Source: Escherichia phage a48
Sequence record: OQ067375.1
DNA length: 64,000 nucleotides
Strand: one strand, 5' to 3'
Every line of letters begins with the position of its first letter. Position 1 is the stretch's first letter. Positions 47,924-63,595 of the stretch are shown here, one piece after another. The translations under genes were made by a program, and so were the position numbers. Under the pieces are notes generated by a model. That model saw only the letters and a list, made by a program, of their open reading frames with translations, was not told where the DNA came from and ran no database searches.

Positions 47924-48337
47924 TTATTCCTTAAAGTGAGCTTTCAACATCTGATACAAGGACCATGCCTGTTCATCATTTTCAATAGTAACTTTCATTA
48001 CAGGGAATTTAGATTGATCAGTTATCGGTGCAGATTCTTCCTGCTCTTCAGCTGCCTGGTATGGATTTTCAACTTCATTAAAGAATTCAGCTTCATTCGA
48101 TGAAAGCCAAATAAAATCTTCATCCAAAATATCTTTACCAGAAGATAGTACTAAATTTCCAGCAAATGACATAATTTTAATAGGACGCCCAAGAGCATCC
48201 ACATCTAAAATTTTAAAAGGGTGCATACCTAAACGGCGTGCATAGATTCCGTTATCAGTATGGTCTTTAATAAAATTTTCTTGAGCTTGTTTATTTTTAA
48301 ATTGATACCATTTATTAACTTCAAATTTAATAGCCAT
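47924..48337 (-). CDS. hypothetical acidic protein
   Basis: 137-aa ORF. Confidence 0.45.
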
Positions 48338-59067: not shown

Positions 59068-59193
59068 ATGGTAGGAATTTTACTCTGGAACTTTATTCTA
59101 TCACCTGTTGCAATTGCGCATGGTATTAATATTCCAGTAGTTACTCTTGATACATTTGTAGATTTAGCATTTGCTTTAGTTGGGTTGATTTAA
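59068..59193 (+). CDS. plus-strand hydrophobic mini-ORF (41 aa)
   Basis: MVGILLWNFILSPVAIAHGINIPVVTLDTFVDLAFALVGLI; no clear SD; stop overlaps gene 61 stop on opposite strand. Confidence 0.25.
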   Translation: MVGILLWNFILSPVAIAHGINIPVVTLDTFVDLAFALVGLI

Positions 59194-60218
59194 ATCTTAG
59201 CATATTTAGATAGCCGCATTTTAGCCATCAACCCCTGGGCAATATTATTTTTCATATATTCCATAATTTGTTCAGGGGTTGCACCTTCCTTTCTAATCAT
59301 ATCATTGACATCTTTTGATTTCCAGGGAGATTTATCCCAAAACATAACCCTTTCTCCTGCATCAACTAATTTAGTCATTCGTTTGATAGTGTCAGGGTGA
59401 CGAGGTTCATTATCTAAAACCCACACTCGTCTATCTTTAAATGGAACAACTTCTAGGTCTAATTGACCACCTGTAATAGCTATACCATTTTCAATAAAAA
59501 GTGAATCTATAGGTCCTTCTAGAACATATACATCACCATCTTTAACTCGTTCAACACCGTAAATTTTTGTTGCCTCAGGATAAGCTTTAATGGTGATATA
59601 TTTTTGAGGAGCATCTTTCTTTAATGCACGTCCTTGAAAAGACTCAGCTTTTCCATTAGCATTATAAATTGGAATAACAAGACGAGGCTCAGAAATTTCC
59701 TTTTTGTATGTTCCCGGTGCTATACTATTAACTAATTTAGGCCATTCGGTTGTAAACCAAAGATATTTCCATTTATCCTTTGGAATACAACGAGCTTTTA
59801 CATATTTTATAATTGGATGGTCTTCCGCCAGTTTATCTAATCTAATGCATGACGGAAGAGATTTAATTATTTTCTTCTCAGGTTGTTTAGGAAGTTCTTT
59901 AGGTTTTTCTACTGGACGACTTTTACCTTTTTCTTTTCTTATTTCAAAGATATACTCACGATATAAATCAGGTTCAAACTCCTTTAAATATATTCCGATT
60001 GGTGCATGATAGTTACAGTTATAACAATGAATATTTCCTTCATTATTATCACCATAATACCATCCACGGGCTTTATTTTGGTCGGTTTTTGAATCTCCAC
60101 AAACAGGGCATCTAAACCGTAATTTAAAAGTTGAACTATTATTTACTTGTGTGAATTTAGGTAAATGAGCTAGCGCCCGGTATGCAAACTCATTATCAAT
60201 CCAAGGTATTGATGACAT
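59190..60218 (-). CDS. 61: gp61 DNA primase
   Basis: 342-aa ORF with N-terminal zinc ribbon (CPVCGDS...CYNC) and TOPRIM core. Confidence 0.95.
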   Translation of the reverse strand: MSSIPWIDNEFAYRALAHLPKFTQVNNSSTFKLRFRCPVCGDSKTDQNKARGWYYGDNNEGNIHCYNCNYHAPIGIYLKEFEPDLYREYIFEIRKEKGKSRPVEKPKELPKQPEKKIIKSLPSCIRLDKLAEDHPIIKYVKARCIPKDKWKYLWFTTEWPKLVNSIAPGTYKKEISEPRLVIPIYNANGKAESFQGRALKKDAPQKYITIKAYPEATKIYGVERVKDGDVYVLEGPIDSLFIENGIAITGGQLDLEVVPFKDRRVWVLDNEPRHPDTIKRMTKLVDAGERVMFWDKSPWKSKDVNDMIRKEGATPEQIMEYMKNNIAQGLMAKMRLSKYAKI

Positions 60219-60220
60219 TT

Positions 60221-60385
60221 TTACTCTTCTTTTTCTTTAGATTCCTCTTTTTTCTTTTTAGGAATCTGTTCAGGACCTTTATTTACTACAGCGCCTGACG
60301 TTGTTCCAGTAGAGATATTTTCAGGATTACCACCTGAATCTCCAGCGACCATATCTTCTTTGATAAATTCTTTAAACGTTTTCAT
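60221..60385 (-). CDS. hypothetical small protein (54 aa; 61.1 position)
   Basis: Unlisted ORF MKTFKEFIKEDMVAGDSGGNPENISTGTTSGAVVNKGPEQIPKKKKEESKEKEE; ends 3 nt upstream of gene 61 ATG. Confidence 0.4.
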   Translation of the reverse strand: MKTFKEFIKEDMVAGDSGGNPENISTGTTSGAVVNKGPEQIPKKKKEESKEKEE

Positions 60386-60386
60386 A

Positions 60387-61013
60387 TTAACCTCTATTCA
60401 TAAAAGCATTAAAAATTTGGTCATCAATAGAAACATTCACTTTAGACTGTTTTTCTGATGGTAATTCATATCCACATATTACAATTTTATGATCAATATC
60501 AAAATACACAGAAGCAATATGATTAATGATGTTTTCAGTAAAGTCTAAATCAACATCAATATCTTTTTGACCACAGCCCAAAGGATAAATAATGCGAGTA
60601 ATTCGATTATCTTTAACAAAGATTCCACCGATATACTCTGTGCTGCGTTCAAAGTCTACACGCCGACGAAATGAAAAATATTCAGGCTCTTTATGAGCTC
60701 GGCTCATAGGACACAACGAGTAACTAGAATAAGAGATGTCAAATCCTACGCCTTCAATATGAGCCAAATTATCATGATTAAACCAATTATAATCGTACGC
60801 CAAGTCCATTAGATTATAATATGTGAAAGGCACCGGATTAACATCACTAGTCGCAAGCATGTAATTAGCAACTGCTATAATTTCGTTGTTTTTAACGAAT
60901 ACAAACCGCGATTGATGCGAATGACCTGGACCTGCGCTTTCACGATTAATGATATAACACTGGGCACCTTTATATTTGTACGTGTCTTTGCACTTGTGCA
61001 TTTGATAAAGCAT
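60387..61013 (-). CDS. hypothetical protein (61.2 position)
   Basis: 208-aa ORF between 61.1-like ORF and sp. Confidence 0.5.
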   Translation of the reverse strand: MLYQMHKCKDTYKYKGAQCYIINRESAGPGHSHQSRFVFVKNNEIIAVANYMLATSDVNPVPFTYYNLMDLAYDYNWFNHDNLAHIEGVGFDISYSSYSLCPMSRAHKEPEYFSFRRRVDFERSTEYIGGIFVKDNRITRIIYPLGCGQKDIDVDLDFTENIINHIASVYFDIDHKIVICGYELPSEKQSKVNVSIDDQIFNAFMNRG

Positions 61014-61306
61014 TATTCACCTACCACTTCAGCGATGATATTTTTATTATTGAAGTTTTTATCGCAATACAAAACATAATTATACTGCATTACACCACCA
61101 GACTTAAGCTGTTTTTGTACTTCAGCTTTCATTTCAGGACGATCACGCTCAACGATATTCATAATATCCGCTTCAATTTGAGTTTCAACCTCAGTCTGAT
61201 CTGCAGTCATAGACCACTCACACAAATCTTTATCATAACCTGCCATAGCAGGCTGAGCAGTACAAGAAGCCAAAGCAAAAATTGCAGCAAAAACAAATTT
61301 TTTCAT
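61013..61306 (-). CDS. sp: Spackle periplasmic protein
   Basis: 97-aa ORF with cleavable signal peptide MKKFVFAAIFALASCTAQPAMA. Confidence 0.75.
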   Translation of the reverse strand: MKKFVFAAIFALASCTAQPAMAGYDKDLCEWSMTADQTEVETQIEADIMNIVERDRPEMKAEVQKQLKSGGVMQYNYVLYCDKNFNNKNIIAEVVGE

Positions 61307-61364
61307 GATAATCTCCTCAGTAGTTTATGTTTATAATAGTATCTCAATTTCCAACAAAAGTAAA

Positions 61365-61619
61365 CTATTTTATTTCCTCAAGTTCGTTAATCAATAAAAG
61401 TTCTCTGACGCTAAAAACAAAGAAAAATGTGTTCCCATCAACCAGAGCATGACCGCTAATAGAACACCCTCTGCGGAATTTAGAAACTTCACAATCTAGA
61501 ACTGTAAAGGGTTTTAATCCTATGACTTTAGCTGTGCGTCTATTCAGTTCACAACCACTTGCGAATTTTTCCAAATCTTCTTCTGATTTAAACTGATATT
61601 CTCTATTAACTAGCATCAT
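61365..61619 (-). CDS. hypothetical protein
   Basis: 84-aa ORF; early promoter upstream. Confidence 0.45.
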   Translation of the reverse strand: MMLVNREYQFKSEEDLEKFASGCELNRRTAKVIGLKPFTVLDCEVSKFRRGCSISGHALVDGNTFFFVFSVRELLLINELEEIK

Positions 61620-61650
61620 TTTCTTTTCTCCGCGATTAGCTGATAGAATT

Positions 61651-61680
61651 ACTATAACACAACTCTATCAGCTTGTAAAC
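61651..61680 (-). promoter_or_regulatory. T-even early-type promoter
   Basis: -35 GTTTAC (61680..61675), 18-bp spacer, -10 TATAGT (61656..61651). Confidence 0.5.
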
Positions 61681-61682
61681 TA

Positions 61683-61925
61683 CTATTTTACTAGCATCAA
61701 TAACTGTTTCTCTAGCTTAACGATCTTACGAAAGTATCTTTTGCATTGACGAATCTGCCGTTTCGTAGGACGTACAACAAACTTAATAAATTCCACTCGA
61801 CCAAATGGAGGGCTTTCTTCTGCTGGAATATCTAACACCAATTCCCATGTATCCGCAATAAGTGCTTTGAATTGAGTATTTTTCCTGACGTTATACGGAG
61901 TAGGTTTAAATAAAACAATATGCAT
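61683..61925 (-). CDS. hypothetical basic protein
   Basis: 80-aa ORF. Confidence 0.45.
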   Translation of the reverse strand: MHIVLFKPTPYNVRKNTQFKALIADTWELVLDIPAEESPPFGRVEFIKFVVRPTKRQIRQCKRYFRKIVKLEKQLLMLVK

Positions 61926-61926
61926 A

Positions 61927-62109
61927 TTATCCTCGGCAATCTACTTCACATACTTTCTTGTCATCAATGAAAGCTTTAACTAATGCTTTATTAACTTCAG
62001 CATATTGAGTAGTAGCCCATTGAACGTCATCTTTCATCATTGTGATTTCTTTAGTAAACATGCTTTCATTCTTAAACCACCCCATAAAAACTACCTTTAC
62101 TAATTCCAT
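61927..62109 (-). CDS. dmd: Dmd-like antitoxin (61.5 position)
   Basis: 60-aa ORF immediately downstream of gene 41 and early promoter; size and position as recalled for T4 Dmd. Confidence 0.55.
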   Translation of the reverse strand: MELVKVVFMGWFKNESMFTKEITMMKDDVQWATTQYAEVNKALVKAFIDDKKVCEVDCRG

Positions 62110-62138: not shown

Positions 62139-62168
62139 ACTATACCATAGTCTTGTCAGCTTGTAAAC
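62139..62168 (-). promoter_or_regulatory. T-even early-type promoter
   Basis: -35 GTTTAC (62168..62163), 18-bp spacer, -10 TATAGT (62144..62139). Confidence 0.5.
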
Positions 62169-63595
62169 TAAAATTTTAATTCATTTGCCAAAGCATCTAA
62201 CTGAGCTCGAGTGGATTCATTTCTTTGATAGCGATTCTGCTCAGCCTGAATCTGTTGTGAACCTGCTACTTCACTCACTTCAGTTGGAGTAGAATCTTGT
62301 TCAATTTCTACCCATTTTTGATTTCCTTTTTGAACACCCATCAAAAACTTATTCCACTTATTCTTATCACCATATCGTGATTTGATTTGCTTAATAAGTT
62401 GTTGTTCAGCAGCTGCTAGCTCCTCGGTTTCAATGACCGCAAGCATAAAATCAGCTGTTGCTGGAAGACCAGCAGATTCTGCAATATCGCTCATGTTAAC
62501 ATCGGAAGAATCCCAAGCCTGTTTACCAACCTGAGCTGCAGTCCAAAGAACAGTTTCGGTTTCAACAGCCAGAGCACGCAATTCCTCTGCGATAGCTTTA
62601 ACAGTTGTGTAACTATTTTCTGAATAAACTCTAATGCGGCAAGATTTACAAATACCTAGATAGTCGACAATAATGATTGTTGGAACAAAATTCTTCTTGA
62701 GCTTTAATTCATTTAAAAGTGATCGAAATGTATTAGCGTCTGCTCCACCAGTAGGATATTGCTTAACGATTAAACGACCAAGGGTAGATTTCTCACGCCA
62801 TTTTTCCATTTTTCCTTTATACTCAGCGTAAGAAATATGTCCATCATCAATATCGTCAAGAGAAACATCGAGCATGTTAGCATCAATACGTTTAGCACAG
62901 ACTTCTTCTGCCATTTCCATGGAGATATAAAGAACGTTATGACCAAGCTGCAAATAATCTGCTGCTAATGAACAAAGTCCTAATGATTTACCAACGTTAA
63001 CGCCAGCCATTAAAACGTTCAGTGTTCCAGTCTCAGCTCCGCCTTTAGTAATTTTGTTTAGAATTCTGAGTTTAAATGGAACCTTACGAGCTTTATTCAT
63101 ATAAGATAGCCAACGCGCTTCATAGTCATCCATCCAATCATGACCAACGTAGCTATCAAATGAAATTGATAATGCTTGGCGCATGATGTCAGGAATAGCA
63201 CCTACATCTGGCATTTTCTTATTTCGTTTTTCCGGAGGAAGCTCAGCATTAGTTTGAATTTCGATTATTTTAGACGTAGCATTAAACATCGCCCTTTGTT
63301 GAACATATTTTTCTGTTTCTTTTACTAACCAGCTGTGGTCTTCTGGAGAATCAGCCAGTTTTGAAATAAGTGTTTTTACACCAGAATATTCTGTTTCAGT
63401 AAATGAACTATTTTCTAATGCAACATTTAACGCATTAATAGATGGAACGCTATGATACTCATTAACATGAGATTTAATTAATTTGAATGTATTTTTAGCT
63501 GGACCACTTTCAAAATATTCTGAATCCATATATGGCCAAACTTTTGAAAAATAAGCTTGATCAAATATAAGATGAGAAAGAATAATTTCTACCAC
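62168..63595 (-). CDS. 41: gp41 replicative DNA helicase (DnaB-like)
   Basis: 475-aa ORF MVEIILSHLIFDQAYFSKVWPYMDSEYFESGPAKNTF... with Walker A GVNVGKS. Confidence 0.95.
   Translation of the reverse strand: MVEIILSHLIFDQAYFSKVWPYMDSEYFESGPAKNTFKLIKSHVNEYHSVPSINALNVALENSSFTETEYSGVKTLISKLADSPEDHSWLVKETEKYVQQRAMFNATSKIIEIQTNAELPPEKRNKKMPDVGAIPDIMRQALSISFDSYVGHDWMDDYEARWLSYMNKARKVPFKLRILNKITKGGAETGTLNVLMAGVNVGKSLGLCSLAADYLQLGHNVLYISMEMAEEVCAKRIDANMLDVSLDDIDDGHISYAEYKGKMEKWREKSTLGRLIVKQYPTGGADANTFRSLLNELKLKKNFVPTIIIVDYLGICKSCRIRVYSENSYTTVKAIAEELRALAVETETVLWTAAQVGKQAWDSSDVNMSDIAESAGLPATADFMLAVIETEELAAAEQQLIKQIKSRYGDKNKWNKFLMGVQKGNQKWVEIEQDSTPTEVSEVAGSQQIQAEQNRYQRNESTRAQLDALANELKF

Follow-up and report, generated by a model that had tools for sequence, protein, structure and literature searches.

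The 41-61 gene island of Escherichia phage a48 and its GoF-like candidate gene on a promoter cassette

Introduction

The block of six small genes discussed here lies at positions 60221 to 62109 of a stretch of 64,000 nucleotides (nt) from Escherichia phage a48 (sequence record OQ067375.1; one strand, 5' to 3'). That whole stretch is called the window below. The block is flanked by the genes for primase (gene 61) and helicase (gene 41), a region that has already been named the "anti-TA island" in print, TA being short for toxin-antitoxin (Srikant et al. 2022, PMC9391042).

Judged by identity and architecture, the block is very probably this same T-even island of early small accessory genes, plus one gene of 84 amino acids (aa) on a cassette of the promoter-early stem-loop (PeSL) type. 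We put the probability of this at roughly 0.9. The island itself is already known, and its sole non-T4 feature is the 84-aa GoF-like gene with its cassette.

The genome type of the window is Tequatrovirus. Its best DNA match is vB_EcoM_G4498, with 98% identity over 4.6 kb around the block. Many other T4-like phages are 95-97% identical over the same 4.6 kb.

Genes of the island

The listing of open reading frames (ORFs) contains six in the block, all on the minus strand. With their flanks, the genes are:

59190-60218: primase 61, 342 aa, flank of the six-ORF block
60221-60385, minus strand: orthologue of gene 61.1, 54 aa, 98% identical to T4 gp61.1
60387-61013, minus strand: adfA (gene 61.2), 208 aa, 95% identical to T4 gp61.2
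61013-61306, minus strand: sp (Spackle), 97 aa, 96% identical to T4 Sp
61365-61619, minus strand: 84-aa ORF, homologue of the GoF N-terminal domain, no T4 counterpart in the island
61683-61925, minus strand: tifA (gene 61.4), 80 aa, 96% identical to T4 gp61.4 over 76 aa
61927-62109, minus strand: dmd (gene 61.5), 60 aa, 100% identical to T4 Dmd
62168-63595: helicase 41, 475 aa, other flank of the block

A sequence-only reading of this DNA had placed six ORFs between primase and helicase, and the listing confirms their positions exactly. It had also proposed two early promoters, and this number was too low: three are found, for dmd, for the 84-aa gene and for sp.

All six ORFs have a Shine-Dalgarno-like sequence ahead of them, and several are coupled via overlapping stop and start codons. 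Five are T4 orthologues with 95-100% protein identity (blastp against the T4 reference NC_000866), and the island shares with T4 its position between genes 41 and 61, its gene order and its strand. Full-length Pfam and/or PHROG matches exist for five ORFs. The sixth, of 84 aa, is backed as a real gene by its ratio of nonsynonymous to synonymous differences (pN/pS). The full-length matches in Pfam are AdfA (PF23813), T4_Spackle (PF25676), DUF7279 and Dmd (PF17587). None of the six proteins matched in an NCBIfam search, and Rfam, with E up to 1, returned nothing between 59000 and 63700.

Dmd is the simplest case. The 60-aa ORF matches PF17587 over residues 1-60 of 60 (E 1.6e-46) and PDB entry 5HY3_B, "Antitoxin Dmd" (E 1.8e-37). 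The gene is placed downstream of gene 41 and directly upstream of tifA, behind an early promoter. Dmd is an antitoxin mimic that inhibits the RnlA RNase toxin (PMC9391042). Given its 100% identity to the characterised protein, the product in the window would neutralise RnlA and LsoA.

The 80-aa ORF matches DUF7279 (PF23945) with E 1.3e-20. Gene 61.4 has been renamed tifA, since its product inhibits ToxN; T4 escapes plasmid-borne toxIN through tandem amplification of dmd-tifA (PMC9391042). TifA binds ToxN and RNA; RNA binding and the inhibition of ToxN require the P53-T54 helix cap and the basic residues K55, R56 and R59 (PMC10853763). The TifA of the window keeps R52, P53, T54, K55, R56 and R59, so that the RNA-binding motif is intact, and from orthology it would inhibit ToxN. 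A PDB search gave no solved relatives for TifA, nor for AdfA.

What differs is the tail. The window has QLLMLVK where T4 has QFVTCDYAEILK, which makes for 80 aa instead of 85, and the T4-type C-terminal extension FVTCDYAEILK is not present (the chain ends in LLMLVK). RB69 TifA also goes without this extension and is yet the more potent ToxN inhibitor (PMC9391042), while the TifA of phage vB_EcoM_P8 ends at KLEK. The extension is therefore not essential to the TifA family.

The P8 locus (L002, 2770-3357) deserves a remark of its own. There, CAG has become TAG in tifA and GAG has become TAG in the 84-aa gene, shortening both proteins, the latter to 80 aa. Because of these point mutations, both C-terminal tails appear dispensable. 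The P8 record names TifA a "DNA polymerase" and gp61.1 a "major capsid domain-containing protein"; these look like annotation errors.

The 208-aa ORF matches the family of AdfA, anti-DarT factor A (PF23813), over residues 1-208 (E 2.5e-134). A His at position 164 of RB69 AdfA is needed for DarT1 binding and neutralisation (PMC11257639). RB69 itself has Arg164; at this column both the window and T4 have His165. AdfA is variable among relatives. T2 is without adfA (PMC11257639), RB14 has a 118-aa gp61.2-like ORF (locus L004, 845-1201), and in Hafnia phage IsaacDaniel there is nothing between 61.1 and sp (locus L009, 605-616).

Spackle, the 97-aa ORF, matches PF25676 (E 9.4e-45) and the PDB entries 6X6O (residues 1-97) and 7CN6, "Protein spackle". 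Its N-terminus is a typical Sec signal peptide, MKKFVFAAIFALASCTAQPAMA|GYDK, and the crystallised mature chain of 7CN6 begins at residue 23. According to the literature on the T4 orthologue, Spackle is a periplasmic protein of superinfection exclusion: once exported, it keeps the tail lysozyme of superinfecting phages from acting.

Gp61.1 is small and of low complexity, with a Lys/Glu-rich tail. It has a full-length match to phrog_1823 (unknown function), and no match in Pfam or NCBIfam.

Most of the sequence-only reading of these genes holds. It had Dmd in the 60-aa ORF, and with homology to Dmd present this claim stands; the link of the 208-aa ORF to DarTG is borne out by the AdfA match and the His at the RB69 R164 column, and Spackle with its signal peptide was recognised correctly. 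For the 80-aa ORF it guessed an inhibitor, which was right, and said that no function could be assigned, which was not: TifA was published as a ToxN inhibitor in 2022, and the identity to gp61.4 is 96%. The 84-aa ORF keeps its status as a candidate, and its origin can now be placed, as a non-T4, cassette-borne homologue of the GoF N-terminal domain. The overall picture of a cluster of anti-defence factors is good for Dmd, TifA and AdfA, which have been published as an anti-TA island; it fails for Spackle, which serves superinfection exclusion.

Early promoters and hairpins

The three promoters are:

62167-62139, minus strand: dmd-tifA promoter, TTTACA-N17-TATAGT with TG extension, 14-bp hairpin at 62160-62127
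61679-61674 (TTTACA) and 61656-61651 (TATAGT), minus strand: promoter of the 84-aa gene (cassette), same hexamers, TG extension, 14-bp hairpin at 61673-61638
61364-61336, minus strand: sp-adfA-61.1 promoter, TTTACT-N17-TACTAT, read from the sequence, right boundary of the cassette

The dmd promoter has been described as an early T4 promoter, and a promoter downstream of tifA has been mentioned as well (PMC9391042). The dmd promoter of the window differs from that of T4 by one base. The sp promoter fits the T4/PST-type consensus TTTACW-N17-TAYWAT (quoted in PMC4122927). The cassette promoter fits this consensus at 11 of 12 positions, its -10 box TATAGT departing from TAYWAT at one. A generic promoter scan is not enriched over shuffled sequence (23 found versus 18.9 ± 5.1 expected).

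The cassette and dmd promoters share a 15-mer, TAGTTTACAAGCTGA, which has exactly two sites in the 64 kb, 61668-61682 and 62156-62170. Two or more matches to it were found in 0 of 100 shuffles.

Both promoters also have the same layout of hairpin. In the cassette, the hairpin encloses the -10 box and folds at -18 kcal/mol (z -3.9); at dmd this is -19.8 kcal/mol (z -4.2). The sp promoter is without an embedded hairpin, with a folding z of +0.9.

Covariation of the stem was tested on 11 island promoters from five lineages, and the structure put to the test came from sequences in this same alignment. Although the sequences have changed, compensatory substitutions maintain the stem around the -10 box: pairing is seen in 74% of cells, and in 28-57% after the partner columns have been shifted. 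Both sides have changed in eight of the 14 stem pairs, and the observed covariation score was reached by 4 of 500 shuffles. RNAalifold gave no consensus structure on the 11 promoter modules, and the explicit structure with controls was used instead.

The two copies of TAGTTTACAAGCTGA are direct repeats that flank dmd-tifA, inside a 64-nt repeat of 70% identity. At the same place, T4 has an exact repeat of at most 10 bp. The published adaptive tandem amplifications of tifA in T4 arose at microhomologies of 6-10 bp. Since the exact repeat here is 15 bp, we speculate that carrier phages might amplify dmd-tifA more readily and more frequently, each unit keeping a promoter.

The cassette between tifA and sp

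The element that sets the window apart from T4 is:

61366-61701, minus strand: cassette of about 330 bp; in the direction of the genes it has a replacement 3' end of tifA, an early promoter and its hairpin, a ribosome-binding site (RBS) and the 84-aa gene

Alignment with T4 (blastn, MAFFT) shows that, in the interval from the 61.4 end to the sp promoter, about 329 bp (61373-61701 by blastn) stand where T4 has 26 bp. Both ends of the cassette read AAAATAG(TA)GTTTAC, a stop codon with a -35 box after it. It is this replacement that alters the tail of TifA.

Of the 74 phage records that match the cassette, 73 have it at 99% identity or more, and 70 contain at least 80% of it; the flanks are 95-98% identical. 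Carriers include RB3, RB5, RB7, RB9, RB10, PP01, Shfl2 and ime09. The junctions are identical in three carriers.

Other phages use the same slot differently. ECP2301 (locus L008, 900-1290) and Hafnia phage IsaacDaniel (locus L009, 900-1290) have the same module of promoter, hairpin and RBS, followed by an unrelated 60-aa ORF (phrog_37915). RB69 has imm and imm.1 here (locus L007, 3449-4250). This means that the tifA-sp slot has at least four states: empty (T4), the 84-aa gene (window), the 60-aa ORF (ECP2301, IsaacDaniel) and imm plus imm.1 (RB69). Which of the two TifA tails a phage has does not depend on what its cassette carries.

PeSL cassettes have been described as a means by which modules are shuffled in T4-type phages (Arbiol et al. 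2010, PMC2839356; Comeau et al. 2014, PMC4122927), and by its sequence features the segment in the window appears to match them. The four states of the slot, together with one promoter-hairpin module that carries different cargos, make a clear example of T-even accessory-gene swapping.

The replaced 3' end of tifA, TTGATGCTAGTAAAATAG (61683-61708), reads much like the 84-aa gene's own 5' end, ATGATGCTAGTTAAT (61606-61627), joined to the 3' end of that gene, AAAATAG. It has the look of what is left of another copy of the cassette, nearly all of which has been deleted. The exact match is 10 nt, and could be chance.

The 84-aa protein

In PHROGs, the 84-aa protein falls in phrog_2980 with E 3e-20. 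The title of this group, "goF mRNA metabolism modulator", has been taken over in several RefSeq records. With blastp it has 37% identity to T4 GoF over 41 aa, GoF residues 7-47. With hhalign its residues 3-81 match GoF 6-90 at 97% probability (E 1e-10), and MAFFT gives the same register.

GoF residues 1-91 form an N-terminal LSm-like/SH3-like barrel that is common to MotB.1 and Frd.2 (Kim et al. 2025, PMC12152347). Because the full-length profile match falls within these residues, the 84-aa protein is predicted to be the LSm/SH3-like domain alone, with no acidic linker or C-terminal domain. The two-domain layout of GoF is absent, as the protein ends near GoF residue 90.

Orthology to GoF, as the RefSeq label has it, was considered and rejected. 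The N-terminal domain alone is shared, and the window has a true goF elsewhere:

47927-48337: goF, full length, 137 aa

The GoF of the window is 77% identical to that of T4, whereas for the nearby replication genes 61 and 41 the identity exceeds 99%. Because of this difference from the replication genes, goF looks like a fast-diverging or exchanged gene.

In the family of the 84-aa protein, Cys23, Cys43, Cys52 and His57 are invariant, and they are absent from GoF. Position 22 of the family aligns with GoF Asp25, the site of the D25Y mutation; it holds Gly, Glu or Ile, but never Asp. No signal peptide or hydrophobic segment was found in the sequence.

A first structure prediction from a shallow alignment of five family sequences was unusable, at a predicted local distance difference test (pLDDT) score of 53. 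AlphaFold2 on a combined GoF alignment gave a five-stranded model. The structural neighbours of this model include FeoA, IdeR, T4 MotB.1 and other small SH3-like barrels; FeoA and IdeR have also been reported for the GoF N-terminal domain (PMC12152347).

The family is narrow. It is found in 83 phage records, in five clusters of a set of 5.8 billion proteins, and in one further 50% cluster among 1.8 billion representatives. The other deep-profile matches among these representatives were rejected as spurious or too weak: they are eukaryotic C2H2 zinc fingers matching "KPF.C..C", and one repeat protein whose single repeats match weakly. A PDB sequence search with the family likewise returned chance zinc-finger matches alone. 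The gene is restricted to T-even-type phages, and is present in about 12% of matching Tequatrovirus records (70 of 565).

Between the 84-aa protein and the 55%-identical copy in SP18, pN is 0.30 and pS is 0.80, the latter being saturated. This argues that the protein is under purifying selection. Variants at 77-81% identity have 55 invariant positions.

In the lineages examined, homologues are always within the 41-61 island, in three different slots. In the window the slot is between tifA and sp. In SP18 it is directly after gene 41. In uncultured T4-like phages it is immediately upstream of tifA, behind the homologue's own promoter-hairpin; these come from the Logan assemblies SRR30535871, SRR21291449 and SRR21291447 (loci L010 3501-3983, L011 3501-4140 and L012 1908-2547).

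In all three assemblies the homologue heads the tifA operon, and in L010 the two genes overlap at TAAATG, the stop codon of the homologue running into the start codon of tifA. L011 has a complete 41-61 island, in which three Dmd queries found no dmd. Since it heads the tifA operon where no dmd is detectable, the homologue occupies the place that dmd has in T4. Ahead of the homologue, these uncultured phages have an unannotated ORF of 253 aa that matches nothing in PHROGs.

Possible functions

The scheme that follows builds on the promoter consensus and published T4 data for transcription, and on near-identity to T4 and RB69 orthologues for the functions of the proteins. Straight after infection, the host sigma-70 RNA polymerase would transcribe three units: dmd-tifA, the 84-aa gene, and sp-adfA-61.1. 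By binding the RNase toxins RnlA and LsoA, Dmd would stand in for the unstable antitoxins of these two. TifA would bind ToxN and RNA, trapping ToxN in an inactive ribonucleoprotein, and AdfA would bind the DarT1 ADP-ribosyltransferase, the window having the required His allele. Exported Spackle would block the lysozyme of superinfecting phages. By sequence, the phage carries the standard T4 anti-toxin set; its AdfA allele is the active one, and the core of TifA is intact.

The 84-aa gene would have arrived on its promoter-hairpin cassette, which recombined at stop-codon/-35 junctions between tifA and sp and replaced the last residues of TifA. Its product would be an early cytoplasmic protein that protects phage mRNA, by binding either RNA or a host RNase-type toxin, and in this way complements Dmd and TifA.

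Tentatively, and at well below even odds, we take the 84-aa protein to be a counter-defence factor directed at RNA or at an RNase toxin. Three things suggest such a role: the domain family is tied to mRNA stability, the neighbours with activity against RNase toxins are constant, and the homologue has the position of dmd in the tifA operon. GoF(D25Y) stabilises mRNA "by directly binding to it or by interfering with nucleases", an effect known for the mutant alone (PMC12152347). A bolder version is that this is a new counter-defence factor which neutralises an RNase-type toxin or shields mRNA, is functionally interchangeable with Dmd, given its place at the head of the tifA operon in phages apparently without dmd, and spreads among T-even phages on a self-expressing cassette. 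Put like that, with all its parts, the claim is possible but rather doubtful.

Several observations weigh against the reading of the block as a counter-defence island with such a factor in it. The island is not purely anti-defence, as sp and, in RB69, imm and imm.1 serve superinfection exclusion; because these neighbours act in that way, guilt by association is weak for the 84-aa gene. When wild-type GoF and MotB.1 were put through the published RNA reporter assay, their effect was small (PMC12152347). The five-stranded AlphaFold2 model is of moderate quality, with a pLDDT of 72 and the other four models at 37-60, and its structural neighbours are generic SH3-like barrels with Z no higher than 6. 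The homologue placements in different lineages may not be independent events. As to the hairpins, the stem in the covariation test came from the aligned sequences themselves, and a scan for intrinsic terminators detected none, the hairpins being without a U-tract. The relevance of AdfA in the window phage is uncertain too, because T4 lacking adfA shows no DarTG1 phenotype; AdfN (gp30.3), which is encoded elsewhere, does the main work (PMC11257639). The cognate DarT may be a different homologue.

The 84-aa protein could also be a GoF-like housekeeping modulator of the stability or processing of phage mRNA, for example of the gene 41 or dmd-tifA messages, with no part in counter-defence. Full-length homology to the GoF N-terminal domain agrees with this, mutant GoF raises the stability of gene 41 mRNA, and the 84-aa gene is just downstream of gene 41 in all lineages examined. 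But the window already has a full-length goF at 47927-48337, the 84-aa protein is without the linker and C-terminal domain of GoF, and its Cys/His set is not in GoF. Moreover, presence in about 12% of records (70 of 565) fits an accessory, host-specific role better than a core regulator. We regard such a housekeeping role as conceivable, if somewhat unlikely.

The promoter cassette could also be selfish or prone to recombination and have spread through efficient recombination, with an ORF that is mostly neutral and travels along without the protein being of use. Among the 74 matching records, 73 have nearly the same cassette between varying flanks, another ORF is found behind this promoter module elsewhere, PeSL cassettes have been described as vehicles for ORFans (PMC2839356), and the P8 copy ends after 80 aa owing to a point mutation. 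A neutral passenger is nevertheless improbable: between genera pS is saturated at 0.80 against a pN of 0.30, length and Cys/His residues are conserved, variants at 77-81% identity keep their 55 invariant positions, and the gene has stayed in this island in three lineages or more, which speaks for a selected function. A role in phage-phage competition or host takeover, such as superinfection exclusion in the manner of sp or imm/imm.1, we likewise consider quite unlikely. The slot does hold imm and imm.1 in RB69, sp adjoins, and the gene sits behind a predicted early promoter. However, envelope-acting Sp and Imm are unlike a protein with no signal peptide or hydrophobic segment, and the sole detectable homology is to the cytoplasmic GoF/MotB.1 family. 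The sequence-only reading took the 84-aa and 80-aa ORFs to be uncharacterised new inhibitors both. Their location between known inhibitors speaks for it, but with the 80-aa ORF being TifA, characterised in 2022-2023 and 96% identical to T4 gp61.4, there is hardly any room left for this version.

The 84-aa gene is a well-defined and cheaply testable candidate, and three of its island neighbours have already been shown to inhibit toxins. The gene would, in addition, place the enigmatic family of GoF/MotB.1/Frd.2 domains in a natural functional context for the first time.

Comparison with known systems

Like the members of the GoF/MotB.1/Frd.2 family, the 84-aa gene is an early gene found in T4-like phages alone. 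Unlike goF, it sits in the 41-61 island and not next to gene 39. In the uncultured T4-like phages, its homologue resembles T4 Dmd in being the first gene of the tifA operon.

The cassette differs from PeSLs of the RB49 type, which have G-tracts and C-tracts: its stem is AT-rich and encloses the -10 box, and there is no U-tract or terminator signature. In other respects it is like the published PeSLs. It combines a strong early sigma-70-type promoter with a stable stem-loop, it is intergenic, it bounds an indel between close relatives, and its module is reused for other ORFs.

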